The notes under the pieces: model-generated | Seen by the model: only the letters and a program-made list of their open reading frames with translations | Databases searched by the model: none | What the model was told of the DNA's origin: nothing | Position numbers and translations under genes: made by a program | In this document: positions 1 to 45,118 of the stretch, in pieces | How the letters are laid out: the number at the start of each line of letters is the position of its first letter | How positions within the stretch are numbered: the stretch's first letter is position 1 | Assembly (NCBI GenBank): GCA_041611735.1 | Contig: JBFIML010000027.1 | Coordinates: forward strand, 1 to 57,472 | DNA: 57,472 bases | DNA from: Myxococcota bacterium | Lineage (GTDB): Bacteria > Myxococcota_A > UBA9160 > PR03 | Direction: 5' to 3'

Positions 1-92
1 GGCAGCAGGAAGGTATCCGGACGCTTGTTGGAGCAGCCGACTCCGAACGCCAGTACCAGGGCACTTCCGAGCCACAGCGCCTTCGTGTCCAC
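1..92 (-). CDS. Putative lipoprotein, N-terminal fragment (runs off window)
   Basis: Own translation from GTG at 92: MDTKALWLGSALVLAFGVGCSNKRPDTFLL; signal peptide with lipobox-like GVGC; G-rich RBS upstream. Confidence 0.6.
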   Translation of the reverse strand, partial: MDTKALWLGSALVLAFGVGCSNKRPDTFLL

Positions 93-219
93 GATCCCCC
101 CCCGGCCCCTCGCGGGCCGCGCCCTGTTGACGAAACTGGTTCATAGGATCTTCACCGCGGTGCCCGCCGTCAAGGACGGGCGTGACCGTCCTCGTCGCGG
201 CTCCGGCTAGACTGCCGCC

Positions 220-1614
220 GTGCCCCGGAGCCGCTCCGCCTACGCCTGCACCGAGTGCGGCGCCCGCCAGCCCCGCTGGCTGGGTCGCTGCCCGGCCTGC
301 GGCGCCTGGTCCTCCCTGGTGGAGGAGCCGGAGTCGCCGGGCCCCGGTCGGGCGCGGCTCGAGGCACGGCCCGCAGGCGAGCCCCTGCGTCTCGGCGCCA
401 TCGAAGCGGGCCGCAGCGAGCGTCTGGGCACCGGGCTTCCGGAGCTCGACCGGGTCCTGGGCGGCGGGCTGGTGCCGGGGTCGGTCGTGCTCCTGGGGGG
501 CGAGCCGGGCATCGGAAAGTCGACGCTCGCCCTCCAGGCGGCGGCCCACGTGCGGCGCGCCGGCCGCCCCGTCCTCTACGTGAGCGGCGAGGAGAGCGCG
601 GAGCAGATCCGGCTGCGCGCAGTCCGGCTCGCCGACGCTCCCGAGGAGCTGCTGGTCCTCGTCGAGACGCGAGCCGGGGCGCTGCAGGATCCGTGGCGCA
701 AGCTGGAGCCCGCGCTCCTGGTCATCGACTCGATCCAGACGCTCCAGACCGAGCGCGTCGAGTCTGCGCCGGGCTCCGTCGCCCAGGTGCGCGAGTGCGC
801 TGCCGAGCTCGCGGCCACCGCCAAGGAGACGGGCACGGCGCTGCTCCTGGTGGGCCATGTGACCAAGGAGGGCAGTCTGGCCGGGCCCCGCGTCCTCGAG
901 CATCTGGTGGACGCGGTGCTGCTCTTCGAGGGCGACCGCGGTCATCCCTATCGCCTGCTGCGCGCCGTGAAGAACCGCTTCGGCTCCACCCAGGAGGTGG
1001 GCGTGTTCGCCATGACCGAGCGCGGCCTCGAGGCGGTGGCGAATCCGAGCGAGCTCTTCCTGGCGGAGCGGCGCGGCGGGGCGCCGGGCTCGTGCGTGGT
1101 GCCGGTGCTCGAAGGTACGCGTCCCATGCTGCTCGAGATCCAGGCGCTGGCCGCGCCCTCGAGCTACGCGTCGCCGCGACGCACGGCCCTCGGCGTGGAC
1201 GAGGCACGCGTCGCGCTGCTGCTCGCCGTGCTGGCCCGCCACGGCGGCGTGGACCTGCTGGGACACGACGTGTATGTGAACGTGACCGGGGGAGTTCGCG
1301 TGGCAGAGCCGGCGGCGGACCTGGCCGTGGTGCTGGCGCTGGCGTCGAGCCGGCTCGACCGGCCCGTGCCGTCCGACGTGGCGGCCGTCGGGGAGGTGGG
1401 ACTCGGCGGTGAGGTGCGCCGGGTCGGCCGCATCGACGCGCGCGTCCGCGAGGCGGCCCGGCTCGGCTTCGGCCGGCTGCTGCTTCCGCGTGGGGCTTCG
1501 CCAACACCGAGAGGTACCCCGGCGGCCCGCCTGCTTCCGGTGGCCGACGTGGCGGAGGCGGTGGCCTGGCTGCGTGCGTCAAGCCCCGTTCACGAAACCG
1601 TGAACGCCCGTTAA
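220..1614 (+). CDS. radA: DNA repair protein RadA/Sms
   Basis: N-terminal CxxC..CxxC zinc finger, Walker A GEPGIGKST, KNRFG motif, Lon-like C-terminus. Confidence 0.97.
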   Translation: MPRSRSAYACTECGARQPRWLGRCPACGAWSSLVEEPESPGPGRARLEARPAGEPLRLGAIEAGRSERLGTGLPELDRVLGGGLVPGSVVLLGGEPGIGKSTLALQAAAHVRRAGRPVLYVSGEESAEQIRLRAVRLADAPEELLVLVETRAGALQDPWRKLEPALLVIDSIQTLQTERVESAPGSVAQVRECAAELAATAKETGTALLLVGHVTKEGSLAGPRVLEHLVDAVLLFEGDRGHPYRLLRAVKNRFGSTQEVGVFAMTERGLEAVANPSELFLAERRGGAPGSCVVPVLEGTRPMLLEIQALAAPSSYASPRRTALGVDEARVALLLAVLARHGGVDLLGHDVYVNVTGGVRVAEPAADLAVVLALASSRLDRPVPSDVAAVGEVGLGGEVRRVGRIDARVREAARLGFGRLLLPRGASPTPRGTPAARLLPVADVAEAVAWLRASSPVHETVNAR

Positions 1615-1651
1615 GCCTCTAGTTTTCCAGGCACTTTTCGTCGCTTCGCCT

Positions 1652-1680
1652 TTGACACGCGGAGGCGGCATGGCTAGCTT
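1652..1680 (+). promoter_or_regulatory. sigma70 promoter (TTGACA-N17-TAGCTT), probably leaderless
   Basis: -35 at 1652-1657, -10 at 1675-1680, ATG 6 nt after the -10, no SD. Confidence 0.7.
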
Positions 1681-1686
1681 CGAAAT

Positions 1687-2712
1687 ATGCGCGACGCGTC
1701 GATGGGTGCGAACCGATTCGAAGCGCTGTTCGCGCACGTGGCGGAGCCCCTCGAGCTCGTCGAGCAGGCGCTGCGCGCCCAGCTCGCCTCGCGCAGCGAA
1801 GTGGTGGCGCTCGTCGGCGAGCACGTGCTCTCGGCCGGCGGGAAGCGCGTGCGGCCCGCGCTCCTCCTGCTGGCCGCCGAACTGTGTGGGTACACGGGGC
1901 CGCGGCGGGTCCAGATCGCTGCCGCCATCGAGCTGCTGCACACCGCCACCCTGCTGCACGACGACGTGGTGGATGTCGCCACGCGCCGTCGCGGACTCGC
2001 GGCCGCCAACACGCTGTGGGGAAACCGTCGCGCGGTCCTGACCGGGGACTTCCTCTATGCCCGGGCCTCGGCCATGGTGGTGGACGACGGGGACCTCGAC
2101 GTGCTCGCCATCTTCGCCGATGCGATCCGCCAGATGGCCGAGGGCGAGATCCTCCAGCTCCAGTTCAGCTTCGATCCCGATGTGACCGAGACGCACTACT
2201 ACGACGTGATCGGCTGCAAGAGCGCGGCGCTTCTGGCCACGGCCTGCGAGGCCGGCTCGATCCTGGCGGGGGTGACGCGGGCAGAGCGACGCCGCCTGGC
2301 GGAGTTCGGAAGAGAGCTGGGCCTCGCCTTCCAGCTTCGCGACGACGCCCTGGATTACACCGCGGCCGAAGCGGCGCTCGGCAAGCAGCCCTTCACGGAC
2401 CTGCGCGAGGGGAAGGTGACGCTACCGCTCCTGCTCACCCTGAAACGCTGCACGCCAGCGGAGCGTGCGGAGCTGGCTGCGTTGCTCAAGCAGCTGGCCT
2501 GCCGGCCGGAAGCGCCGGATGGGGGCGAGCTGCACCGGGCGCTGCGCCCCGCCGTCGAGCTGGTGCGGCGCCATCGGGGCGCCGAGGACACGGTGCGCCG
2601 CGCGTCCGACCACGTGGCTCGGGCGCAGAGCGCGATCGCTCCCTTCCCGGAGGGCGCGGCGAAGCGGGCGCTCCGGGCCGCGGCCGAGCTGGCGGCAACG
2701 CGCGACCGTTGA
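1687..2712 (+). CDS. ispB: Polyprenyl (octaprenyl-like) diphosphate synthase
   Basis: GGKRVRP, LLHDDVVD (FARM), FQLRDDALD (SARM), DLREGKVTLP. Confidence 0.9.
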   Translation: MRDASMGANRFEALFAHVAEPLELVEQALRAQLASRSEVVALVGEHVLSAGGKRVRPALLLLAAELCGYTGPRRVQIAAAIELLHTATLLHDDVVDVATRRRGLAAANTLWGNRRAVLTGDFLYARASAMVVDDGDLDVLAIFADAIRQMAEGEILQLQFSFDPDVTETHYYDVIGCKSAALLATACEAGSILAGVTRAERRRLAEFGRELGLAFQLRDDALDYTAAEAALGKQPFTDLREGKVTLPLLLTLKRCTPAERAELAALLKQLACRPEAPDGGELHRALRPAVELVRRHRGAEDTVRRASDHVARAQSAIAPFPEGAAKRALRAAAELAATRDR

Positions 2713-7934: not shown

Positions 7935-8047
7935 GTCTTTGGATCATCGGCGGAAACGGAGCCTTCCCCGGGGGTCCTACGGTAGAGGGCTAATGCAACT
8001 CAATGGAAATACCGAACTGGATCTCCGGAGATTCCGGAGGCAGGTCC

Positions 8048-8650
8048 ATGGCAGGCTCGGCCCGGCGGCTTCACGTCCTCGTGGTGGATCCGGAGCCGGA
8101 GAGCGCCCGGGTGATCCAGGAGGCGGTCGCCGCGGAGGGCTGGCGCGTCTCGGTGCTCGGTGAGCCCCGGGGCCTGCTCGACACGCTGCGTGGCACGCCC
8201 ACCCAGGTGGTGGTCGTGGACGTCTCCGAGGCAGCGGGCGGCACGCTCCTGCAACGCATTCGCGAGTTCGACTCGGACCTCTGCACCATCGCCACCACCT
8301 CGCGGCCGTCCGTCGAGACGGCGGTCGCCGCCATGAAGGGCCAGGCCTTCGAGTATCTGCCCAAGCCGGTGGATCCGGTGGCGCTGCGGCGTGCCCTGCA
8401 CGAGGCGGTGCGACAGAAGGGGCTGCTCGTGGATCTCGAGCAGCGGATCAACGCGGAGGTGGGCCGGCGGGTTCGCGAGCGGCGCTCGGAGCACCGCCTC
8501 ACCCTCAAGCAGGTGGCCAAGCGGACCGGCCTCTCCATCAGCCTGATCTCCCAGATCGAGCTGGGCAAGAGCGCCGCCTCGGTGTCCACGCTCTTCAAGC
8601 TGGCGCGGGCGCTGCGGGTGCAGATGACCTACTTCTTCGAGACGGTCTGA
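8048..8650 (+). CDS. Response regulator, REC plus C-terminal XRE HTH (DigR-like architecture)
   Basis: VLVVD, VVVVD, YLPKP receiver motifs; LTLKQVAKRTGLSISLISQIELGK HTH; SD GGAGG. Confidence 0.85.
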   Translation: MAGSARRLHVLVVDPEPESARVIQEAVAAEGWRVSVLGEPRGLLDTLRGTPTQVVVVDVSEAAGGTLLQRIREFDSDLCTIATTSRPSVETAVAAMKGQAFEYLPKPVDPVALRRALHEAVRQKGLLVDLEQRINAEVGRRVRERRSEHRLTLKQVAKRTGLSISLISQIELGKSAASVSTLFKLARALRVQMTYFFETV

Positions 8651-8697
8651 GGCAGAATCCCGGCGATCGTCCGGGACCCCGGGCAGGAGGGGATGGC

Positions 8698-9804
8698 CTG
8701 CGCACCGTCGAAGACACCCGGCCCAAGGCGGGCCTGTCGGTCCCCGTGGTCACGGTGCTCGACGACCACGGCGAGCTGGCGGAGGAGGATCAGCGCGCCG
8801 TCGTCCGGCACGTCGTCCAGGACGGCTATGGCGCCGACGTGGTCTTCGCCGCCGGCACCACCGGGGAGTGGGACCAGGTCGAGAATCCGGTGCGCCAGCG
8901 CGTGGTGCAGGTGTGCGCCGAGGAGGTCGCCAAGGAGAACGCCCGCCTGGCCGGAACCCTCGGCGGCGATCGGGTGGAGCTGTGGGCAGGGATCACCGCT
9001 CCCAGCCCGGAGGAGACCCTCGAGAACCTGGACCATGCGCTCGCCTGCGGCGCCGACGCCGCGGTGCTGGCGCCGCTCTCGATCCCTGGCATCGATCCGG
9101 TGCGCTTCGTGGCGCGAGACGTGGCGGACCTGCTCGACGCCCGGCCACGCCGCATTCCCCTGTTCCTGTACGACAACGCCGGCATCGCCGCCGATCCGAA
9201 GCAGCCCCACATCCGCACCCGGCAGGTGAAGGCCCTCTCGCGTCTCGACTTCGTGCGAGGCATCAAGGTGACGGCTCCGCGCAAGGTGCTCGGCAACTAC
9301 ACGAAGGCCGCCTCGAGCTTCAACGAGCGCGGCGCCTTCGGCATCTACGTGGGCGACGCGCTGCTGATCTTCGACCTCTTCCGTCCGCGCCGCGGCCCGT
9401 TCGGCGCGATCGTCGAGCACTGGAACCGCTGGCGCATGCGGGGCGGCATCCCGAGGGGCGTCGTGGCCGGGCCGGCCAATGCCCTGCCGCGGGAGTGGGC
9501 GCGTGCGTGGCAGGTGTGCCGCGCCGGAGACTGGGAGCGCATGGAGCAGGTGCGGGAGGTGGTGACCGCCTTCCGCGAAGGCACGCATGCCGCCGGCGGC
9601 CGCCGAACCATCGCGTGCCTGAAGCGCGCCCTGCGTCTGCAGGGCGTGATCGAGAGCGACGCCGTGGCGTCGGGGACGCCGGCCCTGGCACGCCCCGACG
9701 CGGAGCGCTTCGACCAGGTGTTCGCGCGGGTGCAGGAGCTCGCCCGCCGGCGCATCGGCCCGCCCTGGGTCAGCCACGCGCCGGGCCGCACGGGCTGCGC
9801 ATGA
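8698..9804 (+). CDS. DHDPS/N-acetylneuraminate-lyase family class I aldolase (start uncertain)
   Basis: GLSVPVVT, AGTTGE, LFLYDN and GIKVT (Schiff-base Lys); frame is open upstream of the called GTG 8746. Confidence 0.85.
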   Translation: MRTVEDTRPKAGLSVPVVTVLDDHGELAEEDQRAVVRHVVQDGYGADVVFAAGTTGEWDQVENPVRQRVVQVCAEEVAKENARLAGTLGGDRVELWAGITAPSPEETLENLDHALACGADAAVLAPLSIPGIDPVRFVARDVADLLDARPRRIPLFLYDNAGIAADPKQPHIRTRQVKALSRLDFVRGIKVTAPRKVLGNYTKAASSFNERGAFGIYVGDALLIFDLFRPRRGPFGAIVEHWNRWRMRGGIPRGVVAGPANALPREWARAWQVCRAGDWERMEQVREVVTAFREGTHAAGGRRTIACLKRALRLQGVIESDAVASGTPALARPDAERFDQVFARVQELARRRIGPPWVSHAPGRTGCA

Positions 9805-11432
9805 GGGGCGACTCGGATCTCGACCTGGTGGGTTTCGGCAGCATGGTCGTCGACCGGCTGCACCGGGCGCCCCGCATCGTGGGTCCGGACCGCAAGGGGA
9901 TCCTGCACCCGCTGGAGGGCGGCGTGCCGACCCGTCGATTCGTGGGCGGCGTGATCCTGAACCAGCTCGGCTGGGCGGCGTCCCTCGGGCTGCGCACGGG
10001 CCTGTTTGGCCGCCAGGCGGACGACGAGAACGGGCGCTTCCTGCGCGCGGCCATGGCCCGCGCGGGCATCGAGGCACACCTCGTCCTCGACGGAAGCGCC
10101 AGCTCCGTGGCGGAGATCTTCGTGGACGACACGGGCGAGCGGGCCATCTACTTTGCGCCGGGGGCCACCGCCGAGACCACGGCCCAGCACGTGCGCGAGC
10201 ACCACGCGGCGTTCCTGCGGCGCGCGGGGCGGCTCTCGACGGAGGTGCACCAGCTTCCGCTCGATGCGGTGCGGGAGGCGCTGCGGCTCGCACGCGAGGC
10301 GGGGGTGTCGGCCGTGGTCGATCTCGACGCCCGGCCCTCGGACGTGGTGCCGGCGCTCGGGGACGAGGCAGCCCTGCGGGAGGTGCTGGGCGCTGCGGAC
10401 CTCCTGAAGCCGGCGCGCGCCGCGGCAGAGGAGCTGGTGGGCGGGGGCAGCGCCGACGCGCTCGAGCTCGCACGCCGGCTGCGTCGGCAGCTCGGCGTTC
10501 CCGCGGTGGTGGTGACCGACGGGCAGGCCGGGTGCGCCGTGGCCAGCGAGCGCTTCGAGGGCTCGATTTCCGCCTTCGCGGTCAAGGCGGTGGACGCCAC
10601 CGGCGCCGGTGACGCCTTCCTGGGCGGCCTCGTGGCGGGCATCCAGTACCGGCTTGCGTGGCCTGACGCCGCGCGCCTCGGCAATGCCTGCGGCGCCGCC
10701 TGCGTGGAGCAGATCGGAGCCTTCCCGGAGGACGCGGCGCGGGCCAGAGCCAGGATCCTCGAACTGTACGACGGCGCGCCGGTGCCCTGGGCGCCGGCCC
10801 CGGCGCCGGCGACGACGGCTGGGCCCGGGACCGCCGAAGCGCTGGCGACCGTCGACGTCGCGCTCGAGGAGCTCGGCGCCCTGCGGCGGCGGCTCGGGCC
10901 GCAGCCCTTCCAGGCTGCCGCTCGGCTGATCCGGGAGGCGGAGGCGCGGGGCGGTCGCGTGCACGTCACCGGGGTGGGCAAGCCGGAACACGTGGCGCGC
11001 TACGCGGCGGCGCTGCTGGCGTCCACCGGAACGCCTGCCACCTTCCTGCACGCCACCGAGGCGGTGCACGGGAGCGCGGGTCAGGTCCTCGCGGGCGACG
11101 TGGTGATCGCTGTCAGCAACAGCGGCCAGACCGAGGAGGTGCGGGCCTGCGTGGAGGTCGTGCGGCGCCTCGGAGCGCGCGTCGTGGCCGTGACCGGGGG
11201 CATCGACTCACCGCTGGCCCGGGCCGCCGAAGTGGTGCTCGATGCCGGCGTGGGCCGTGAGGGCGGCGGCCTCGGTCTCGCGCCGCGGGCGAGCGTCGCG
11301 GCGGAGGTACTGATCCTGGCCGCCCTCGCCGCCGAGCTGGAGCAGGCCCGCGGCTTCTCCCCCTCCGATTACCACGCTCGCCACCCCTCCGGCCCCCTGG
11401 GCCGGAAGACCCGGGGGCCCGTCGCGGACTAG
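9801..11432 (+). CDS. PfkB-family sugar kinase fused to KdsD/GutQ-like SIS isomerase domain
   Basis: DATGAGDAF PfkB motif; SIS motifs TGVGK, ASTGTPATFLHATEAVHG, SNSGQTEE, HPSGPLGRK; ATGA overlap. Confidence 0.88.
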   Translation: MRGDSDLDLVGFGSMVVDRLHRAPRIVGPDRKGILHPLEGGVPTRRFVGGVILNQLGWAASLGLRTGLFGRQADDENGRFLRAAMARAGIEAHLVLDGSASSVAEIFVDDTGERAIYFAPGATAETTAQHVREHHAAFLRRAGRLSTEVHQLPLDAVREALRLAREAGVSAVVDLDARPSDVVPALGDEAALREVLGAADLLKPARAAAEELVGGGSADALELARRLRRQLGVPAVVVTDGQAGCAVASERFEGSISAFAVKAVDATGAGDAFLGGLVAGIQYRLAWPDAARLGNACGAACVEQIGAFPEDAARARARILELYDGAPVPWAPAPAPATTAGPGTAEALATVDVALEELGALRRRLGPQPFQAAARLIREAEARGGRVHVTGVGKPEHVARYAAALLASTGTPATFLHATEAVHGSAGQVLAGDVVIAVSNSGQTEEVRACVEVVRRLGARVVAVTGGIDSPLARAAEVVLDAGVGREGGGLGLAPRASVAAEVLILAALAAELEQARGFSPSDYHARHPSGPLGRKTRGPVAD

Positions 11433-12314: not shown

Positions 12315-13334
12315 ATGGCCATCGCACCCGTCAACGCCCGCACCCGCATCGACAGCGAGCTGGACACGATCCTCACCTCCTTCGACACCAACTACGCCTG
12401 GAACTACGGCAGCGTGAAGGAGGGGCTGCGGGAGCTCTACGAGAAGGCCAAGCGCGAGCAGTGGAACTCCACCACCCAGCTCGCCTGGGACACCCAGGTG
12501 GATCCCGAGAGCGAGATCATTCCCCAGCACTTCAATCCGCTCCAGGACTACGGTCCCTTCAAGAAGCTGAGCCCCAGGCAGGTCACGAGCTTCCAGCACG
12601 CCAACCTGGCCTGGACCCTGTCCCAGTTCCTGCACGGGGAGCAGGGCGCGCTCATGACCGCAGCGCAGCTCGTCGACGCCGTGCCCTGGACCGACGCCAA
12701 GCTCTACGCCGCCTCCCAGACCATGGACGAGGCGCGCCACGTGGAGGTCTTCAGCCGCTATCTGCGCGAGAAGCTCGAGTGGGAGTGGTCCATCAACCAG
12801 AACCTGAAGAAGCTACTCGATCAGATCCTCATGGACTCCCGCTGGGACCTCAAGTACCTGGGTATGCAGATCCTCGTGGAGGGGCTGGCCATGGCCGCCT
12901 TCTCCAACATGTACATGATGGCCAACGAGCCGCTGATCAAGGATCTACTCAAGTACGTGATGCGCGACGAATCGCGCCACGTGGCCTTCGGCGTGATCTC
13001 GCTGAAAGGCTTCTACGACGACATGTCGGAGAGCGACCGCAGGGACCGCGAGGAATTCGTGGTGGAGGCCTGCGAGCTCATGCGCGATCGACTGCTGGGC
13101 CTGGACGTGTCGGCCCACTTCGGCTTCGACGTGAAGGAGGTGCGGGAGATCGTGCTCGGCTCGCCGGTGATGCAGCAGTTCCGCCAGTTCCTCTTCATGC
13201 GCGTGGTCCCGAACGTCAAGCGACTCGGGCTGCTGACTCCGCGCGTGCGCGAGCAGTTCGAGCGCCTGGGCATCATCCAGTTCGAGAACGCCGATCCGGA
13301 CGCGATGGACGCCAAGCTCGGCCTGGCGAGCTGA
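12315..13334 (+). CDS. Ferritin-like diiron oxygenase (AurF-like)
   Basis: QFLHGEQGAL, DEARH, EGLAMAAF, DESRH diiron ligand motifs; SD AGGAGG. Confidence 0.85.
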   Translation: MAIAPVNARTRIDSELDTILTSFDTNYAWNYGSVKEGLRELYEKAKREQWNSTTQLAWDTQVDPESEIIPQHFNPLQDYGPFKKLSPRQVTSFQHANLAWTLSQFLHGEQGALMTAAQLVDAVPWTDAKLYAASQTMDEARHVEVFSRYLREKLEWEWSINQNLKKLLDQILMDSRWDLKYLGMQILVEGLAMAAFSNMYMMANEPLIKDLLKYVMRDESRHVAFGVISLKGFYDDMSESDRRDREEFVVEACELMRDRLLGLDVSAHFGFDVKEVREIVLGSPVMQQFRQFLFMRVVPNVKRLGLLTPRVREQFERLGIIQFENADPDAMDAKLGLAS

Positions 13335-27379: not shown

Positions 27380-28182
27380 GAGCGCTCCCCGAGGCCGAGC
27401 ACCTGCTCCATCCCGTACAGGCCCGGCGCGCGCCCGCGCAGCCAACGCGCGGCCGCCAGCGCCCCGCGCGCGAAGTGGTCTCGGGTGGCGGCGCGGTGGG
27501 CGAGCTCCAGCCGCTCGCCGCGGCCCACCAGGAACAGCGTGTGCTCGCCGGGGTTGTCGCCGGCCCGCAGGGCCTGGACGCCGATCGCCCCGAGCGGGCG
27601 CTCCCCGGTCTCGCCCTCCCGGGCCAGGACCAGCCGCTCCCCGCCGGGTCGGCCCCGCCCCTCGGCGACCGCCGCCGCGAGGCGCAGCGCCGTTCCGCTC
27701 GGCGCATCCCGCTTGGCCGCGTGGTGCAGCTCCACGATCTCGGCATCGAAACCCTCGCCCAGGAGCCGCGCCGCCTCGCGCACCAGGTGCACCAGCACGT
27801 TCACGGCCACCGAGAAGTTCGGGGCAGCGACGATCGGCAGGCGGGCCGCGAGCCCCTCGAGCTCGGCGCGCTGTGCGGCGCCGAAGCCCGTGGTGCCGAC
27901 GACGCAGGGGACGCCGGCATCGGCCGCGGCGCGCAGCAACGCCAGACTCGAGGCGGGGGTCGAGAAGTCGATGGCCACGTCGGCCCCCTCCAGGGCGGCC
28001 TTCGGATCCTCCCCCACGCGCACCCCTCCCGGCAGCGCGCTGCCGAGGGCCGGGTGGCCGGGAGCCTCCAGGGCGCCGGCCAGCGTGGCGTCCGCGGCCT
28101 CCGCCACCGCCGCCCGCACCCGCTCGCCCATGCGGCCGAGGGCCCCGACCACCAGTACCCGCAGCGGGGCGCCGGCGCTCAA
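27376..28182 (-). CDS. dapB: 4-hydroxy-tetrahydrodipicolinate reductase
   Basis: GALGRMG, IDFS, GTTG, ELHHAAKRDAPSGTA; TTG start overlapping dapA stop. Confidence 0.96.
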   Translation of the reverse strand: MSAGAPLRVLVVGALGRMGERVRAAVAEAADATLAGALEAPGHPALGSALPGGVRVGEDPKAALEGADVAIDFSTPASSLALLRAAADAGVPCVVGTTGFGAAQRAELEGLAARLPIVAAPNFSVAVNVLVHLVREAARLLGEGFDAEIVELHHAAKRDAPSGTALRLAAAVAEGRGRPGGERLVLAREGETGERPLGAIGVQALRAGDNPGEHTLFLVGRGERLELAHRAATRDHFARGALAAARWLRGRAPGLYGMEQVLGLGERS

Positions 28183-29051
28183 AGCAGGCCGTGCTCCTTG
28201 AGCAGCACCTGGAGCCGCTCGCGGTGGCCCTCGGAAAGGGGCACCAGGGGAAGGCGCAGCTCCTCCCGGATCAGGCCGCGCAGCGCCAGGGCAGCCTTGA
28301 GCGGGATGGGGTTCGTCTCGCAGAAGAGCACCTCGACCAGCGGCAGGAGCTGCTGATGGAGCTGGCGCGCCCGCTCCACGTCGCCGCTGCGGAAGGCACG
28401 CACCATCTGCACCACCTCGGCGGGCGCCACGTTGGAGATGGTGGAGATGGCGCCGCGGCCCCCCACCGCCAGGATCGGGAGCGTGAGCGCATCGTCGCCG
28501 GAGAGCACCACGAAGTCGGCGGGGCAACGGGACACCACCAGCGAGACCTGACGCAGGTCGCCGCTCGCCTCCTTGACCCCCACCACCTGTTCGATGTCCG
28601 CCAGGCGCGCCATGGTCTCCACGTCGATGTTCGACGCAGTGCGACCGGGGATGTTGTAGACCAACAGGGGGCAGGCGGTCTGACGGGCCACCTCCGCGTA
28701 GTGCGCCACGATCCCGGCCGGGGTCGGCTTGTTGTAATAGGGCGAGATGAGCAGCGCTCCGTCGGCCCCCGCCTCCTTGGCGTGGCGGGTCAGGGCGACG
28801 GCCTCCTCGGTGGAGTTGGAGCCCGTGCCGGCCAGCACCTGCACGCGGCCCCGGGCGGCCGCCACCGTCACCTCGATCACGCGGCGATGCTCCGCGTGGG
28901 AGAGCGTCGCCGCCTCGCCCGTGGTGCCGCACGGGACGATCCCGTTCACGCCGGCCGCCACCTGCAGCTCCACCAGATGCTGGATGGCCCGCTCGTCCAC
29001 GGCCCCGTCCCGGAACGGGGTCACCAACGCGGTGAGGACGCCTTCGAACAC
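28179..29051 (-). CDS. dapA: 4-hydroxy-tetrahydrodipicolinate synthase
   Basis: TALVTPF, GTTGE, PYYNKP, YNIPGRT, GVKEASG, ETNPIPLK. Confidence 0.97.
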   Translation of the reverse strand: MFEGVLTALVTPFRDGAVDERAIQHLVELQVAAGVNGIVPCGTTGEAATLSHAEHRRVIEVTVAAARGRVQVLAGTGSNSTEEAVALTRHAKEAGADGALLISPYYNKPTPAGIVAHYAEVARQTACPLLVYNIPGRTASNIDVETMARLADIEQVVGVKEASGDLRQVSLVVSRCPADFVVLSGDDALTLPILAVGGRGAISTISNVAPAEVVQMVRAFRSGDVERARQLHQQLLPLVEVLFCETNPIPLKAALALRGLIREELRLPLVPLSEGHRERLQVLLKEHGLL

Positions 29052-38861: not shown

Positions 38862-40001
38862 ATGGAATTCTCCCTGAGCGACGATCAGCTGGCCCTCCAG
38901 GAGACCGCCCGCCGCTTCGCCCAGCAGGAGATCGCCCCGGTGGCGGCGGAGTACGACCAGAGTGGGACCTTCCCCCGGGACATCATCAAGAAGGCCTGGG
39001 AGCTCGGGCTGGTCTCCACCTGCGTGCCCGAGACGTACGGCGGGGTCGGCCTCGGGTTGCTGGAGAGCTGCCTCGCGGTCGAGGAGCTCGCCTGGGGCTG
39101 CTCCGGCTTCACCACCTCCATCATGTGCAACGACCTCGGCCTGATGCCCATCGTGCTGGCCGGCAACGATGCCCAGAAGAAGCAGTGGCTCACCCCCTGC
39201 ACCCAGGACTTCAAGCTGGTCTCCTTCTGCCTGTCCGAGCCCGAGGCGGGGTCCGACGTGGCGGGCCTCCAGCTGCTGGCCGAGAAGGACGGCGACGACT
39301 ACGTGCTGAACGGCACCAAGTGCTGGATCACGAACGGGGGCGAGGCGGACCTCTACACGGTCTTCGCCACCCTGGACCGCAGCAGCCGCCACCTGGGGAT
39401 CTGCGCCTTCGTGGTCCCCCGCGACGCGCAGGGCCTCAAGCCGGGCAAGAAGGAGGACAAGATGGGCCAGCGGGCCAGCGACACCCGCCTGGTCCACTTC
39501 GACAACGTGCGCGTGCCGGCCGCCCAGCGCCTGGGGGCCGAGGGCGAGGGGTTCAAGATCGCCATGCGCACCCTCGACGCCACCCGCCCCGTGATCGGGG
39601 CCCTGGCGGTGGGGATCGCCCGCCGGGCCCTGGACGAGTGCCTGGCCTACGCCCGGGAACGCAAGGCCTTCGGCTTCCCGATCGCCGGCTTCCAGGCGAT
39701 CCAGTTCATGCTGGCCGACATGGCCAAGGACCTGGACGCCGCACGTCTGCTCACCTGGCAGAGCGCCTGGATGGTGGACCAGGGCCTGCGGGCGTCCAAG
39801 CAGTCCTCCTTCGCCAAGTGCTTCGCCACCGATGCCGCCATGCGCATCACCACGGACGCCGTCCAGGTCTTCGGCGGAAACGGCTACACCCGGGAATACC
39901 CGGTCGAGAAGCTGATGCGGGACGCCAAGCTGATGCAGATCTACGAGGGAACCAACCAGATCCAGCGCCTGGTGATCGCCCGGGAGCTGCTGAAGGAGTA
40001 G
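38862..40001 (+). CDS. Acyl-CoA dehydrogenase
   Basis: [31 protein letters not shown]. Confidence 0.96.
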
Positions 40002-40179
40002 CGGGGTGCGGGGCGCCCGGAGCGAGTCGGGCCAGCCCGCGCCGGACACCCTCCCGGCGCCGCAACCTCCCGGAACGGCGACCGAAACCCGTTCGACATC
40101 CCCCGAGGTGATCTGGTAGACTGCCGCGTTCCGATCGGCAGCCGGGGTCGGGGCCCGCCGGACACGAGGACGCGTTGCC

Positions 40180-41466
<1,287 letters not shown>

Positions 41467-41485: not shown

Positions 41486-43036
41486 ATGTCGGTCGAGGAG
41501 AAGATCAAGCGCCTGGAGGAGCTCAACGCCCGAGCCGAGCTGGGCGGCGGCCAGGTGCGCATCGATCGCCAGCACGAGGCCGGCAAGCTCACGGCCCGCG
41601 AACGTCTGGAGCTGCTCCTCGATCCGGGCACGTTCGCCGAAACCGACCGCTTCGTGGTGCACCGCTGCACCGACTTCGGGATGGACGAGACGAAGATCCC
41701 GGGCGACGGTGTGGTGACGGGCCACGGAAGGATCGACGGCCGGCAGGTCTTCGTCTTCGCCCAGGACTTCACGGTCTTCGGGGGCAGCCTCTCCGGGGCC
41801 TTCGCCGAGAAGATCTGCAAGATCATGGACCTGGCCGCCAAGGTGGGCGCGCCGGTGATCGGGCTCAACGACGGCGCCGGCGCCCGCATCCAGGAGGGTG
41901 TCGTCTCGCTGGGTGGCTACGGCGACGTCTTCCTGCGCAACGTGCTCTCCTCCGGGGTGATCCCGCAGATCTCGGCCATCATGGGCCCGTGTGCGGGCGG
42001 CGCTGTCTACTCCCCGGCCATGACCGACTTCATCATCATGGTGAAGAACAGCAGCAACATGTTCATCACCGGGCCGGACGTGATCAAGACCGTGACCCAC
42101 GAGGACGTGTCGGCCGAGGAGCTGGGCGGGGCGGTGGCCCACGCCAGCCGGAGCGGCGTGGCGGACTTCGCAGTGGGCAGCGAAGAAGAGTGCATCCAGG
42201 TGATCCGCGCGCTGCTCTCCTTCGTTCCCCAGAACAACCTGGAGGACCCGCCCTTCGTCCCGACGGACGACGACCCGAATCGCATGGACCCCCGCCTGCG
42301 GACCCTCGTGCCGGACAACCCGAACAAGCCCTACGACATCAAGGAGCTGATCCGGCTGGTCGTGGACGACGGCAACTTCCTGGAGGTCCATCCCCTCTAC
42401 GGCAAGAACCTCGTGGTGGGCTTCGCACGCTTCGGGGGGCGCTCGGTGGGGATCGTGGCCAACCAGCCCGCCCACCTGGCCGGTGTGCTCGACATCGACG
42501 CCTCGCGCAAGGGTGGCCGCTTCGTGCGCTTCTGCGACGCCTTCAACCTCCCGATCATCACCTTCGTGGACGTGCCGGGCTTCCTGCCCGGCGTGGCCCA
42601 GGAGCACGGCGGAATCATCACTCACGGCTCGAAGCTGCTCTACGCCTTCTGCGAGGCCACCGTGCCCCGCATCACCGTGATCACGCGCAAGGCCTACGGC
42701 GGGGCCTACGTGGTCATGAGCAGCAAGCACACCCGGGCGGACGTCAACCTGGCGTACCCCACCGCCGAGATCGCCGTGATGGGGCCCGAGGGCGCCGTGA
42801 ACATCGTCTTCCGCAAGGAGCTGGCGGACACCGACGATCCCGCCGCCCGCAAGGACGAGCTGGTGGCCGACTATCGGGAGACCTTCGCCAACCCCTTCAA
42901 GGCGGCGGAGCTCGGATACATCGACGAGGTAATCAAGCCCGAGGAGACGCGCCCCAAGATCATCCGCGCCCTCGAGATGCTGGCCACCAAGCGCGATAGC
43001 AACCCGCCGAAGAAGCATGGGAACATCCCGCTCTGA
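41486..43036 (+). CDS. pccB: Acyl-CoA (propionyl-CoA) carboxylase carboxyltransferase subunit
   Basis: [34 protein letters not shown]. Confidence 0.93.
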
Positions 43037-43058
43037 CGGCGGGGCGGGGGGCGCCCGC

Positions 43059-44594
43059 ATGTTCCGCAAGGTCCTGATCGCCAATCGTGGCGAGATCGCG
43101 GTGCGCGTGATCCGCGCCTGCCGCGAGATGGGCGTGAAGACGGTTGCGATCTACTCCGACGTGGATCGCAATGCGCTTCACGTCCGATTTGCCGACGAAG
43201 CCCATCATTGTGGCCCTCCGCCGGCCCGCGAATCCTATCTCGTGATCGACCGCATCCTGGAGATCGCCCGCAAGGCGGGCGCCGACGCCGTGCACCCGGG
43301 CTACGGGTTCCTGGCGGAGAACGGCGACTTCGTGGACCGCTGCGAGAAGGAGGGCCTGAGGTTCATCGGTCCGAGCGGGGACGTGATGCGCGCCATGGGC
43401 GACAAGGTGACCGCCCGCCAGGCCATGGAGAAGGCCGGCGTCCCGATCGTGCCGGGCACCACCGAGCGCCTCTCGGACGAAGCCATCACGCGCTGGATCC
43501 GCGAAGTGGGGCCGCCGGTCATGGTGAAGGCGACCGCCGGCGGCGGCGGCAAGGGCATGCGTCTGGTCCGGAGCGAGGCGGAGATCGAGCGCGCCGTGGC
43601 GCGCGCACGCAGCGAGGCGCGCTCCTCGTTCGGCGACGACGGCCTCTACGTGGAGAAGTTCATCGAGCAGCCGCGTCACATCGAGATCCAGGTCCTGGCG
43701 GACTGCCACGGCAACGTGATCCATCTCTTCGAGCGCGAGTGCTCGATCCAGCGCCGGCACCAGAAGGTGATCGAGGAGGCGCCGGCCAACGGGATGACCC
43801 CGGCCTTGCGCGCCAAGATGGGTGAAGCGGCAGTGGCTGCGGCTCGCGCGGTCGACTACGTGGGCGCAGGCACCATCGAGTTCCTGGTGGATGCCAAGGG
43901 CCACTTCTACTTCCTCGAGATGAATACGCGCGTCCAGGTGGAGCATCCGATCACCGAGGCGATCACGGGCGTCGACATCGTGAAGGCCATGATCCGGGCG
44001 GCGGCCGGCCAGCCGCTCGGGATCCGCCAGGAGGAGGTGGCGATCCACGGTCACGCCATCGAGGCGCGCATCTACGCCGAGGATCCGGACAAGGACTTCG
44101 CGCCCTCGCCGGGGAAGGTGCTGGTCTACCGCCCGGCCGACGGCTTCGGGATCCGGGTGGACAGCGGCGTCTATCAGGGCGCCAGCGTGAGCGTCTTCTA
44201 CGACCCCATGGTCGCCAAGCTCGTGGCCTGGGGACGCGACCGGCCCGAGGCGATCGATCGCCTGAAGCGCGCCCTCGCCGAGTTCGTGGTGAAGGGCATC
44301 AAGACCTCGATTCCCTTCCACCAGAGGGTCGTGCACCACCCGATCTTCGTGGCAGGGCGCTACGACACGGGCTTCATCGACGCCCACATGGCCGGGGGCA
44401 AGGGGGGTCCGCAGCCGGTGGAGGGCGACGAGGCCCGCGAGGCCGAGCGGGTGGCCTTCATGCTGGCGGCCGTGGCCGCCTACCAGCGCGACAAGCGACA
44501 GGCGGAGCGGACCATCAGCGGGCGGAGCGGCGTGGCGCAGAGCCCGTGGAAGAGCTTCGGGCGCCGCTTCGGGATGCGGAGCGGCCTGCGGTGA
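43059..44594 (+). CDS. Biotin carboxylase subunit of acyl-CoA carboxylase
   Basis: ANRGEIA, HPGYGFLAEN, RECSIQRRHQK, EMNTRVQVEH. Confidence 0.95.
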   Translation: MFRKVLIANRGEIAVRVIRACREMGVKTVAIYSDVDRNALHVRFADEAHHCGPPPARESYLVIDRILEIARKAGADAVHPGYGFLAENGDFVDRCEKEGLRFIGPSGDVMRAMGDKVTARQAMEKAGVPIVPGTTERLSDEAITRWIREVGPPVMVKATAGGGGKGMRLVRSEAEIERAVARARSEARSSFGDDGLYVEKFIEQPRHIEIQVLADCHGNVIHLFERECSIQRRHQKVIEEAPANGMTPALRAKMGEAAVAAARAVDYVGAGTIEFLVDAKGHFYFLEMNTRVQVEHPITEAITGVDIVKAMIRAAAGQPLGIRQEEVAIHGHAIEARIYAEDPDKDFAPSPGKVLVYRPADGFGIRVDSGVYQGASVSVFYDPMVAKLVAWGRDRPEAIDRLKRALAEFVVKGIKTSIPFHQRVVHHPIFVAGRYDTGFIDAHMAGGKGGPQPVEGDEAREAERVAFMLAAVAAYQRDKRQAERTISGRSGVAQSPWKSFGRRFGMRSGLR

Positions 44595-45118
44595 ACTACG
44601 AGGTCTCGGAGAAGAAGGGTGCCACCCGCCGGCTGGCCCTGCGCGAGCTCGAAGAGGGTGTCTACGAGGTCACGATCGGGGAAGAGACGGTCCACGTGGA
44701 CGTGGTCCAGAGCGGGCCCAGCACCTACTCGGTGATCGAGGACGGCAAGCAGTTCGAGGTGATCGTGGACGAGCGGGGCACCCATGGCTTCGACGTCCTC
44801 GTGGCGGGGCGCCTTTTCCATCTGGACGCCGTGGACGAGCGCATCAAGGCCCTGGCCGGCTCCGCCAAGGCCACGGTCACCGGGCCGCAGACGGTCGAGG
44901 CCGAGATGCCGGGCAAGGTGGTGAAGCTCCACGTGGCGGCGGGCCAGCCCGTGCGGGAAGGGCAGGGCGTCGTGGTGGTCGAAGCCATGAAGATGGAGAA
45001 CGAGATCTCCTCGCCCATCGACGGCATCGTGAAGGAGATCCCGGTGTCCGAGGGGCAGACCGTGGAGACCGGCGCCGTGCTCTTCGTGGTGGAGCCTTCG
45101 CCGTCTTCCAAGGCCTGA
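44591..45118 (+). CDS. Biotin carboxyl carrier protein subunit
   Basis: MPGKVV, EAMKMENE biotinylation motif; GTGA overlap. Confidence 0.93.
   Translation: MNYEVSEKKGATRRLALRELEEGVYEVTIGEETVHVDVVQSGPSTYSVIEDGKQFEVIVDERGTHGFDVLVAGRLFHLDAVDERIKALAGSAKATVTGPQTVEAEMPGKVVKLHVAAGQPVREGQGVVVVEAMKMENEISSPIDGIVKEIPVSEGQTVETGAVLFVVEPSPSSKA

Follow-up and report, generated by a model that had tools for sequence, protein, structure and literature searches.

In the Myxococcota bacterium that is the source of the window (the whole stretch of 57,472 nucleotides analysed here), the only KpsF-type isomerase domain of the genome is the C-terminal part of a fusion protein that begins with a PfkB-type kinase, and the gene for this fusion directly follows that of a divergent aldolase. 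What is new here is that the fused SIS domain holds this place alone and is mutually exclusive with canonical KdsD. Our preferred reading, to which we give slightly less than an even chance, is that the operon serves Kdo metabolism at its arabinose-5-phosphate (A5P) node, where the isomerase would feed KdsA and the aldolase and kinase would return free Kdo to A5P.

Both genes lie on the forward strand. The first (8698..9804; 368 residues, with a probable CTG start) is predicted to encode a class I (Schiff-base) pyruvate aldolase, a divergent member of the DHDPS/NAL superfamily. The second (9801-11432; 543 residues, ATG at 9801) encodes a ribokinase-fold PfkB domain (9801..10790, residues 1-330), a linker with helices preceding the SIS domain (10791..10955; in the AF2 model residues 330-350 are of low confidence and helices follow at 342-382), and a KdsD/KpsF-type SIS domain without a CBS pair, recognized by the NCBIfam kpsF model (10956..11432). 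The two reading frames overlap by ATGA (9801-9804), which bears out the translational coupling proposed in the initial annotation, and they are best read as one operon. On its 5' side the aldolase frame stays open beyond 8698, and it closes with the stop at 9802-9804; its earliest in-frame ATG, GTG or TTG is at 8746, and the codon at 8698 is CTG, with GGAGG 7 nt before it. A start at 8698, as a CTG codon, appears reasonable because the alignment of homologues begins at this codon, with ATG, GTG or TTG in exactly that column in many of them, because of the spacing of the GGAGG, and because DNA contigs from two other studies have identical letters at 8698. Upstream by 47 nt and on the same strand is a gene for a protein with a response-regulator receiver and an Xre-type HTH domain (8003..8650; Pfam Response_reg 47.5 bits, HTH_3 51 bits), which possibly regulates the pair.

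The aldolase scores 35.5 bits against Pfam DHDPS (PF00701; cut-off 22.1), a match confined to profile positions 3-101, the N-terminal third. It had been described as a divergent member of this family separate from dapA, and so it proved: the true dapA, on the reverse strand at 28179-29051, reaches 356 bits against TIGR00674 (cut-off 206.15), whereas the aldolase reaches 26.4. Six of its residues (G53, T54, G56, E57, Y158 and K190) are invariant in 62 aligned homologues, and it retains the Schiff-base lysine, the catalytic tyrosine and the G-x-T-G-E carboxylate-binding motif, with K190, Y158 and GTTGE paired by hhalign with K165, Y137 and GSTGE of E. coli NanA. The AF2 model (pLDDT 91.8) is predicted to form a (beta/alpha)8 barrel with C-terminal helices, like solved members of the superfamily. 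A Foldseek search returned at least 500 PDB matches at E<=0.001; the matches listed are NAL, DHDPS and YagE (TMt 0.79-0.88), and the closest among them is N-acetylneuraminate lyase of C. glutamicum (5c54; E 4e-16, 20% identity). At E<=0.01 there is no match to the NCBIfam nanA model. The G-x-D-E motif, by which NAL binds its sugar, is not kept, since G189-Y-D191-E192 of NanA pairs with G219-D/N-A, after which 4 residues are inserted. Judged by its sequence, the protein represents a small separate branch of the superfamily, apparently active and outside the characterised subfamilies.

The description of the second gene as a PfkB-SIS fusion with motifs of A5P isomerases and no CBS pair was likewise confirmed. 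The protein matches Pfam PfkB (131.6 bits, residues 45-307) and Pfam SIS (65.9 bits, residues 386-510), and ASTGTP, EAVHG, SNSGQT and HPSGPLGRK are all present. Its score against NCBIfam kpsF is 138.2 bits, below the whole-protein cut-off of 203.7, and since the match is limited to model positions 1-153 of 268, with 154-268 unmatched, the tandem CBS pair is lacking. Among PDB matches of the SIS domain, 5uqi (107.5 bits over 171 residues), which we take to be the isomerase of an E. coli CFT073 island, scores best, followed by the SIS domain of E. coli KdsD (2xhz, 101.7 bits) and B. fragilis 3etn (85 bits). It shares with 5uqi and 3etn a single SIS domain, free of CBS, that ends in HPxGxLGxK, but these are stand-alone proteins and the module SIS is a C-terminal domain. 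Identity to the SIS domain of E. coli KdsD is 47%, and canonical KdsDs of the same phyla range from 43 to 55%. K394, H423, E487 and H528, which are conserved in the family, align with active-site residues of KdsD: the Lys of GxGK, the His of EAxHG, the Glu that precedes GLAP and the His of HPxGxLG; Gln stands where the SNSGE of KdsD has Glu, at a position variable within the family. In these features, and in its occurrence in genomes with KdsA, KdsB and WaaA, the domain resembles KdsD, GutQ and KpsF, from which it differs in lacking CBS domains, in its fusion to PfkB, in its accompanying aldolase, and in forming its own clade apart from canonical KdsDs in a quick tree (SH-aLRT 100).

The nearest solved relatives of the kinase domain are ribokinases (6znx, 75.6 bits), not KDG kinases, and Foldseek aligns it with 6znx and with E. 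coli RbsK (1rkd), both at TMt 0.88 and the latter with an rmsd of 2.5. Invariant residues of the family include the catalytic Asp271 within TGAGD (T267-G-A-G-D271), D18, G49, G50 and N54, together with two basic residues of the lid, K32 and R114, that are additional to those of RbsK. In RbsK numbering, D16, G41, G42, N46, A98, I100, I110, T223 and the GXGD motif with Asp255 are kept. Of the seven ribose-contact residues listed for E. coli ribokinase (PMC9604405), D16, G42, N46 and D255 are retained and three are changed (N14V, K43V/L and E143S, the last being H in the window). The NXXE motif, given a Mg-binding role in an excerpt of PMC5931981, has become A/S-x-x-A and has lost both key residues: N187 is replaced by A, S or T in 58/58 rows of the kinase family and E190 by A in 57/58, and HMMER pairwise alignments to three ribokinases give the same loss. 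The score against the ribokinase model TIGR02152 is 111.2 bits, far from its cut-off of 299.65. A PPi-dependent kinase was ruled out, as RXGRGD is absent and TGAGD is found instead; the same excerpt gives a small second residue of the GXGD-type motif as the ATP-type pattern (PMC5931981). Two other assignments of the fusion were also rejected, an Amadori (FrlD/FrlB) system in view of the 138-bit match of the SIS domain to kpsF and the 33 bits of the fructoselysine kinase model, and a MurQ function because, beside that kpsF score, the best 25 families listed do not include the MurQ etherase.

The initial annotation had asked for kdsA and kdsD elsewhere in the genome. In the source genome (95% complete) KdsA (374 bits), KdsB (198 bits) and WaaA (171.7 bits) are present, and there is no further KpsF-type isomerase, the other SIS proteins being GlmS, a MurQ-like etherase and a GmhA-like isomerase. 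Among 121 genomes sampled from the order, 99 are of the module type, 2 have canonical KdsD, 20 have neither and none has both, and within the family the module occurs in 15/16 genomes. The Myxococcota phylum sample (n=151) holds 22 module-type and 5 canonical genomes, again none with both. In the Binataceae-class sample (n=61) there are 45 canonical genomes and one more with an internal TGA, 7 with the fusion, 6 with a stand-alone CBS-less SIS and 2 with none, and no genome has two types; across the phylum sample of the Binataceae lineage canonical KdsD is found in 77/81. In total, a module-type SIS and a canonical KdsD occur together in 0/333 sampled genomes. From the counts in the order and the Binataceae-class sample, the module is core-like and stands in the place of KdsD, rather than being an accessory catabolic island. 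As the sole KpsF-type domain of the genome, never found with canonical KdsD and present in most of the order, the SIS domain is inferred to be the A5P isomerase of the cell, probably biosynthetic as well. KdsA was detected in 21/22 module holders of the Myxococcota sample. In the exception, genome G133, waaA is broken by contig ends, and kdsA lies at this place in its kin. A KpsF-type SIS is absent from 39/65 KdsA-positive Myxococcota genomes, so an alternative isomerase exists in the phylum and could be present here too.

The linkage of the two genes in other genomes had been set beforehand as a test, and the linkage holds. The aldolase lies directly upstream in 78/80 related loci, which places the pairing beyond chance, and stop and start overlap by 1-8 nt in 64 of these 78 pairs (taking the nearest in-frame start). 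It is strictly co-inherited with the module: it occurs in 21/151 Myxococcota genomes, every one a module holder (21 of the 22), and in the Binataceae-class sample in exactly the 7 fusion holders (7/7). Two class-level kin, G113 and G133, have an active-looking aldolase and an SIS that stands alone, and they lack a kinase orthologue; the kinase domain has been secondarily lost in some kin. All three domains in a single protein are rare in nature, an example being P0143, whose aldolase residues are intact. In the distant relatives P0156, P0161 and P0171 (the first two 50% identical over their full length), an aldolase-like domain without the Lys, the Tyr and GTTGE is fused to SIS. These domains are probably catalytically dead and, since they are still joined to SIS, the association of aldolase and SIS may not be purely metabolic. 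The long 'fusions' P0121, P0122 and P0123 were set aside as probable frameshift or gene-call artefacts, with out-of-frame-looking stretches in the alignment of P0121 and P0123.

The neighbours of the module are housekeeping genes (enolase, RF1/PrmC and Hsp70). A homologue of the regulator is present in 30/80 related loci, in 29 directly upstream of the aldolase, all of them Myxococcota-type and none Binataceae; two proteins encoded upstream at Binataceae loci, c7 and c12, have no family match. An Opp-type substrate-binding protein and two permeases lie directly upstream in the same operon in 7/80 loci and in L092. The nearest solved relative of the binding protein is the peptide binder AppA (189 bits), and PDB chains that we take to be the sialic-acid binder SatA give 66 bits; with these scores it was dropped as evidence for sugar-acid uptake. 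At the related loci there is no consistently linked transporter or Kdo-releasing hydrolase, nor a linked nucleotidyltransferase or glycosyltransferase.

In the preferred reading, the SIS domain would interconvert ribulose-5-phosphate and A5P, supplying KdsA for LPS Kdo, while the substrate of the aldolase would be a free 3-deoxy-2-ulosonic acid, most probably Kdo, split into pyruvate and D-arabinose and derived from the cell's own turnover, from prey or from necromass. The kinase domain would phosphorylate the pentose at O5 to give A5P; alternatively, the kinase might first make Kdo-8-phosphate, which the aldolase would then split into pyruvate and A5P. From there A5P could pass back into KdsA (salvage) or through the same isomerase to ribulose-5-phosphate (catabolism), and this shared metabolite would explain the fusion of kinase and isomerase. 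Of the Kdo catabolic module originally suggested, the route from Kdo through pyruvate and D-arabinose to A5P survives as the simplest chemistry, but not the notion of an add-on beside a normal Kdo pathway, given the exclusivity with KdsD. The scheme recalls NanA-NanK-NanE of the E. coli nan operon, where pyruvate and an aldose arise from a lyase of the DHDPS/NAL family, a kinase acts on the aldose and a third enzyme leads from the sugar phosphate to a central metabolite, and the NAL 5c54 is the top fold match among those listed; in contrast, the module has a PfkB rather than a ROK kinase, an SIS isomerase rather than the NanE epimerase, an aldolase that departs from NanA in motif and family match, and a last enzyme presumably needed for biosynthesis too. 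The reaction proposed for the aldolase is that of Kdo aldolase (EC 4.1.2.23), though that activity was described from other bacteria and its link to this family would be a proposal. The activity was described in 1966; excerpts of two papers treat it and state that none is annotated in E. coli (PMC10619137, PMC12199768), and its gene is still unassigned (PMC10619137). In a search of the literature at the level of the papers themselves, PfkB, SIS domain and arabinose-5-phosphate never occurred together in one paper; Kdo catabolism, degradation, utilization or recycling and arabinose 5-kinase gave no match, and Kdo salvage matched one paper.

Several points weaken the A5P-node reading. A cycle that cleaves free Kdo beside KdsA looks wasteful unless regulated, and the loss of NXXE, the changed ribose contacts, the kinase-less G113 and G133, the want of a consistently linked transporter or Kdo-releasing hydrolase, the seemingly dead aldolase relatives and the possible alternative isomerase each count against it. 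In one rival explanation the aldolase-like and PfkB-like parts are chiefly ligand-sensing or structural and stand in for the CBS pair of canonical KdsD; by sensing, for example, Kdo, pyruvate or ATP they would adjust how much A5P a housekeeping isomerase provides, as the mutual exclusion of CBS-bearing KdsD and the CBS-less module, the SIS-fused P0156, P0161 and P0171, and the family-wide absence of the kinase Mg motif would suggest; but neither the Lys and Tyr of the aldolase nor its G-T-x-G-E varies in the window and the 62 aligned homologues, and all rows of the kinase retain the catalytic Asp, the anion hole formed by GXGD, and D18 and N54 for sugar binding. Such conservation is expected of working enzymes, and we consider this explanation improbable. 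Of similarly low probability is the same logic on another substrate, with the aldolase acting on a different 2-keto-3-deoxy sugar acid, for instance a derivative of Kdo, a heptulosonate or a nonulosonate, the kinase on the released aldose and the SIS domain on that sugar phosphate besides A5P. The position of the aldolase outside the characterised subfamilies (no nanA match, 26 against 206 bits for dapA, no G-x-D-E) and the partly changed ribose contacts of the kinase are consistent with it, and a KpsF-like single-SIS protein of Listeria is reportedly a glucose-6-phosphate isomerase; against it, the SIS domain lies within the canonical range of identity to KdsD, keeps the residues aligned with its active site and replaces it in genomes that need A5P.

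An accessory island that feeds Kdo into the pentose-phosphate pathway, with the cell's own Kdo made through another isomerase, would fit the permease-bearing operons (7/80 loci and L092), the response regulator directly upstream in 29/80 loci and the many Myxococcota without a KpsF-type isomerase, in which a hidden housekeeping enzyme is conceivable. It is unlikely all the same, as the module is core-like and not patchy in the order and family, never accompanies canonical KdsD and sits among housekeeping genes. Pyruvate-dependent synthesis of Kdo-8-phosphate, in which ribulose-5-phosphate would become A5P and the aldolase would join A5P and pyruvate in parallel to the PEP-dependent KdsA, draws on the aldolase and SIS as the invariant core, kinase-less in G113 and G133, and on the missing KdsA of G133; yet that gap is best explained by the assembly break beside waaA, pyruvate aldolases of the DHDPS/NAL type favour cleavage at cellular concentrations, and the presence of KdsA in the source genome and nearly all module holders makes this very unlikely, and the KdsA-independent route raised in the initial annotation unlikely. 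Least probable, and likewise very unlikely, is an activation of arabinose modelled on GmhA and the HldE kinase, the SIS domain making A5P and the PfkB domain phosphorylating C1 for a nucleotide-arabinose. In the heptose pathway an SIS isomerase is indeed paired with a PfkB kinase. Phage pathways from A5P to NDP-arabinose are also described in an excerpt of PMC13326640; however, no nucleotidyltransferase or glycosyltransferase is linked at the loci, the match to the HldE kinase model is weak (59.7 bits, cut-off 345), and the aldolase would be left without a role.

A bolder form of the A5P-node reading, which we regard as doubtful, is that a three-part A5P metabolon has taken over from KdsD in Binataceae and in this order of Myxococcota. 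The NAL-like aldolase would be the Kdo aldolase, the NXXE-less domain a D-arabinose (or Kdo) kinase, and the CBS-less isomerase would work physically with both, coupling the breakdown or sensing of Kdo to A5P supply; in some relatives the SIS-fused aldolase would be dead and purely regulatory.

Most Gram-negative envelopes cannot do without Kdo synthesis, for which KdsD is, to our knowledge, regarded as the universal first enzyme, whereas the Myxococcota order and Binataceae have a differently built isomerase, tied to an aldolase and a kinase. Current annotations of the fusion, 'PfkB family carbohydrate kinase' or 'arabinose-5-phosphate isomerase', each omit half of the protein, and a module family would correct these database names. 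The fusion of SIS to aldolase domains that are probably dead hints that the aldolase fold can also serve in regulation. If the aldolase does cleave Kdo, it would be the first gene for an activity known since 1966, would reveal a salvage route for Kdo and D-arabinose, and would show how this LPS-specific sugar is dealt with by abundant bacteria of sediments and soils, which possibly prey on Gram-negatives.

The two genes of the module lie on the forward strand of a stretch with a G+C content of ~72%, contig C27 of a 4.09 Mb assembly (118 contigs, completeness 95%, contamination 0.64%). The frame of gene 1, the aldolase, is open from before 8698 and closes with a stop codon at 9802-9804; gene 2, the kinase-isomerase fusion, begins with the ATG at 9801 and ends at 11432 (543 aa), such that the genes overlap by ATGA. 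The codon at 8698 is a CTG, the ATG at 8693 belongs to another frame, and the earliest canonical start in the aldolase frame is a GTG at 8746. Because the alignment of aldolase homologues begins at the column of 8698 (ATG, GTG or TTG in many of them), the CTG lies 7 nt behind a GGAGG, and the same letters are found there in contigs from two other studies, we accepted the coordinates of the initial annotation for the aldolase (8698-9804), with CTG 8698 as the probable start. Gene 1 matches Pfam DHDPS in its N-terminal third only (35.5 bits); gene 2 matches PfkB (131.6 bits, residues 45-307) and SIS (65.9 bits, residues 386-510), and it aligns with only the first 153 of the 268 positions of the NCBIfam model kpsF (138.2 bits), which means that it has no CBS pair. 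The initial annotation had described an aldolase translationally coupled to a PfkB-SIS fusion, an SIS domain without a CBS pair, and a true dapA elsewhere in the window (28179-29051, reverse strand); the overlap at 9801, the truncated kpsF match and the dapA gene bear this out, and the four motifs quoted (ASTGTP, EAVHG, SNSGQT and HPSGPLGRK) were all found in gene 2.

The aldolase family is small: a profile search across 1.84 billion representatives returned 93 members at E<=1e-30, 250 at E<=1e-10 and 859 at E<=0.001. G53, T54, G56, E57, Y158 and K190 are invariant across the alignment of 62 aldolase homologues. When its profile is compared with that of NanA from E. coli (probability 80%), K190 falls on the Schiff-base K165, Y158 on Y137 and GTTGE on GSTGE; the G-x-D-E sugar-binding stretch of NAL is not retained in that comparison. 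For the AlphaFold model built from the alignment of 62 (pLDDT 91.8, pTM 0.92), the top solved neighbour is 5c54, the C. glutamicum N-acetylneuraminate lyase (E 4e-16, TMt 0.84, 20% identity); DHDPS and NAL entries come next. No solved structure is close to the protein in sequence (best E 1.9e-5), and it falls below every NCBIfam equivalog cut-off. From the invariant residues, the fold, this remoteness and the small family, gene 1 appears to be an active class I pyruvate aldolase of a separate, uncharacterised branch.

In the AlphaFold model of the fusion, a low-confidence linker (residues 330-350) connects two domains predicted with confidence (pLDDT 92.9), and the pTM of 0.67 leaves the mutual orientation of kinase and SIS domains unfixed. 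Ribokinases are the nearest relatives of the kinase domain, both by sequence (6znx, 75.6 bits) and by fold (TMt 0.88 to 6znx and to E. coli 1rkd). Aligned with E. coli RbsK, using the ribose contacts listed in PMC9604405, the family retains D16, G41, G42, N46, A98, I100, I110 and T223, together with the GXGD motif and its catalytic D255 (D271 in the fusion), and has altered N14 (to V), K43 (to V or L) and E143 (to S; H in the window). NXXE, the magnesium-binding motif according to PMC5931981, has lost its two key residues (N187 to A, S or T; E190 to A in 57 of 58 rows), as is also seen in HMMER pairwise alignments to three ribokinases; from this loss, the kinase would be expected to depend on metals in an unusual way. 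The same paper assigns RXGRGD to PPi-dependent members; the TGAGD of our kinase domain follows the ATP-type pattern, and its lid holds two further invariant basic residues, K32 and R114. Among solved structures, the SIS domain matches 5uqi, a phosphosugar isomerase without CBS domains (107.5 bits), 2xhz, the SIS domain of E. coli KdsD (101.7 bits), and 3etn, an isomerase from B. fragilis (85 bits). Its sequence identity is 47% to the SIS domain of E. coli KdsD and 43-55% to canonical KdsDs from the two phyla, and at the positions that correspond to the KdsD active site it retains the Lys, both His and the Glu.

PfkB-SIS fusions are common in metagenomes (1448 matches at E<=0.001; the best 120 are all PfkB + SIS, with 63-100% identity), and 194 stretches encoding a relative were found in the species-representative genome collection. 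An aldolase homologue lies directly upstream in 78 of the 80 loci kept from these 194 (the exceptions being loci L022 and L038), and the linkage anticipated from the window thus holds in other genomes. The two genes overlap by 1-8 nt in 64 of the 78 pairs, and by 4 nt in 39 of those, where the in-frame start nearest the aldolase stop was taken, a choice that favours short distances. Across 151 genomes sampled from the phylum, all 21 with the aldolase carry a module-type SIS domain, and a fusion lacking the aldolase occurs in one more genome, G032; among 61 genomes of the Binataceae class the aldolase occurs in exactly the seven fusion holders and in 0 of the 54 others.

Most of the genes around the module have housekeeping functions (enolase, RF1/PrmC, Hsp70 and a GcvT/YgfZ-like protein). 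A receiver-HTH regulator lies directly upstream in 29 of the 80 loci, including the window, and an Opp-type binding protein with two permeases lies immediately upstream on the same strand in seven of the 80 and in locus L092, ~10 nt from the module in three loci; since the solved structure closest to the binding protein is that of AppA, a peptide binder, these genes are no evidence for sugar-acid uptake. Downstream of the pair, the window encodes an AurF/R2-like di-iron oxygenase-fold protein (12315-13334, forward strand; Pfam AurF, 38.4 bits), a homologue of which follows the fusion shortly downstream in 14 of the 80 loci by tblastn; in twelve Binataceae-type loci, a protein with weak similarity to AurF (23.9 bits, below cut-off) is encoded downstream on the other strand. 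Farther along the window's forward strand (38862-41466 and 41486-45118), genes for an acyl-CoA dehydrogenase, a malic enzyme, a methylmalonyl-CoA carboxyltransferase-like subunit, a biotin carboxylase and a biotin carrier protein represent ordinary metabolism unrelated to the module. Locus L105 (G000:C7:1-1959; ORF 19-1716, reverse strand) encodes a MurQ-type N-acetylmuramate-6-P etherase domain (323.8 bits, residues 293-560) behind ~290 N-terminal residues that match no NCBIfam family.

In a quick maximum-likelihood tree of 100 SIS domains, all module-linked domains fall on one side of a branch with an SH-aLRT of 100; this side holds 78 fused domains, two aldolase-linked stand-alone domains and that of G032, and the other holds E. 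coli KdsD, canonical KdsDs of both phyla and six stand-alone SIS domains of the Binataceae class. All 28 Binataceae-type rows fall into a single group (support 99) that sits within the Myxococcota rows, a position suggesting that the module was transferred as a whole. In the six Binataceae-class genomes on the far side (G240, G249, G258, G267, G276 and G285), the stand-alone CBS-less SIS (169-188 bits) is the only protein of the KpsF type; it groups with canonical KdsDs and not with the module in the quick tree, and represents a second, independent loss of the CBS pair. In two class-level relatives, G113 and G133, the aldolase is followed by a stand-alone SIS of ~210 aa and the orthologous kinase is absent from the whole genome; since their SIS domains nest among fused ones, the kinase was probably lost secondarily. 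The G113 aldolase retains GTTGE, LYDN and GIKVS; that of G133 retains LYDN and GIKVS and has GTNGE for GTTGE.

Among representatives of the aldolase family, other architectures join the aldolase to the isomerase. Protein P0143 (895 aa), an aldolase-PfkB-SIS fusion, has its catalytic residues intact. The same three domains make up P0171 (861 aa), but without the Lys, the Tyr and GTTGE, which are also missing from P0156 (544 aa) and P0161 (562 aa), each an aldolase-like domain fused to SIS with no kinase. The latter two are singletons at 90% identity (P0161 on two contigs, in three sources), and they share 50% identity over their full length, so the architecture is inherited rather than an accident of assembly. 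In P0156, P0161 and P0171, all distant relatives of the aldolase, the attachment looks like a pseudo-aldolase domain on an isomerase; another distant relative, the stand-alone P0128, also lacks the Schiff-base Lys. Judging from these variants, the aldolase fold is the constant partner of the module SIS, even where catalysis is no longer possible.

The source genome encodes KdsA (374 bits), KdsB (198 bits) and the Kdo transferase WaaA (171.7 bits), and its only KpsF-type SIS is the fusion: remaining kpsF matches cover the CBS part of the model alone, and its other SIS proteins are GlmS, a MurQ-like etherase and a GmhA-like heptose isomerase. This answers the suggestion that kdsA and kdsD be sought elsewhere. 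The genome, 95% complete, contains no candidate KdsC-type Kdo-8-P phosphatase; another phosphatase must act in its place, or its gene must sit in the missing 5%. The module type is present in 15 of 16 genomes of the family, and across three samples, dominated by MAGs, containing related genomes that do not count as independent and searched with a first-look filter, it never occurs together with canonical KdsD: 99 of 121 genomes in the order have the module type, two canonical KdsD and 20 neither; the phylum sample divides into 22, five and 124; and the Binataceae-class sample holds seven with the module type, 45 with canonical KdsD (plus one with an internal TGA), six with the stand-alone CBS-less SIS and two with none. 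Canonical KdsD is present in 77 of 81 genomes from the wider phylum to which the Binataceae lineage belongs, and in five more module holders, reached via their loci, the fusion is the sole KpsF-type match. KdsA accompanies the module in 21 of its 22 holders in the phylum sample; its absence from G133 (93% complete) is likely an assembly gap, because waaA there is split across two contig ends and kdsA lies ~4 kb or less from waaA in related genomes. That the fusion is the sole isomerase is a weaker argument given that a KpsF-type SIS is missing at E<=1e-20 from 39 of 65 KdsA-positive Myxococcota genomes (e.g., G007, G012 and G014), with the search taken down to E<=0.001 in five of these: the phylum must possess an unrecognised A5P isomerase, which could also be present in the source genome.

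The module resembles NanA-NanK-NanE in reaction logic, and KdsD and CBS-less isomerases in its isomerase; on the features tested it belongs to none of NanA, DapA, full-length KdsD or ribokinase. Kdo aldolase (EC 4.1.2.23) is known as an activity with no gene annotated in E. coli, according to PMC10619137 and PMC12199768, and the literature passages searched contain nothing on Kdo catabolism genes or a PfkB-SIS fusion. For two proteins that carry catalytic residues, are co-inherited and exclude KdsD in Kdo-making genomes, we tentatively hypothesize, as a quite possible reading with inferred substrates, that the module works at the A5P node: the SIS domain would interconvert Ru5P and A5P and so supply KdsA, the aldolase would cleave free Kdo to pyruvate and D-arabinose, the kinase would convert D-arabinose to A5P, and this A5P would either serve KdsA again or flow back into the pentose-phosphate pathway. 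No simpler scheme than this four-part one employs all three activities and accounts for their being inherited along with the cell's A5P isomerase. Alternatively, Kdo may be phosphorylated to Kdo-8-P before cleavage to pyruvate and A5P; the kinase-less aldolase-SIS operons fit this order better, and the ribokinase-like fold and the kinase-isomerase fusion fit the aldolase-first order better.

The dead aldolase domains and the loss of NXXE would suit an aldolase and kinase that serve mainly as regulatory or structural partners of the isomerase, but the catalytic residues are invariant in the family of this window, and we consider such a role unlikely, as we do action of the module on another sugar acid. 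Pyruvate-dependent synthesis of Kdo-8-P seems very improbable, and a role in arabinose activation more so still. The purely accessory catabolic island of the initial annotation is hard to credit, if somewhat less so than these last two, and is contradicted by the distribution: a module present in four fifths of the order and never beside canonical KdsD argues for a core replacement. As the main new result, the module behaves like a replacement of KdsD as a core function in these genomes.
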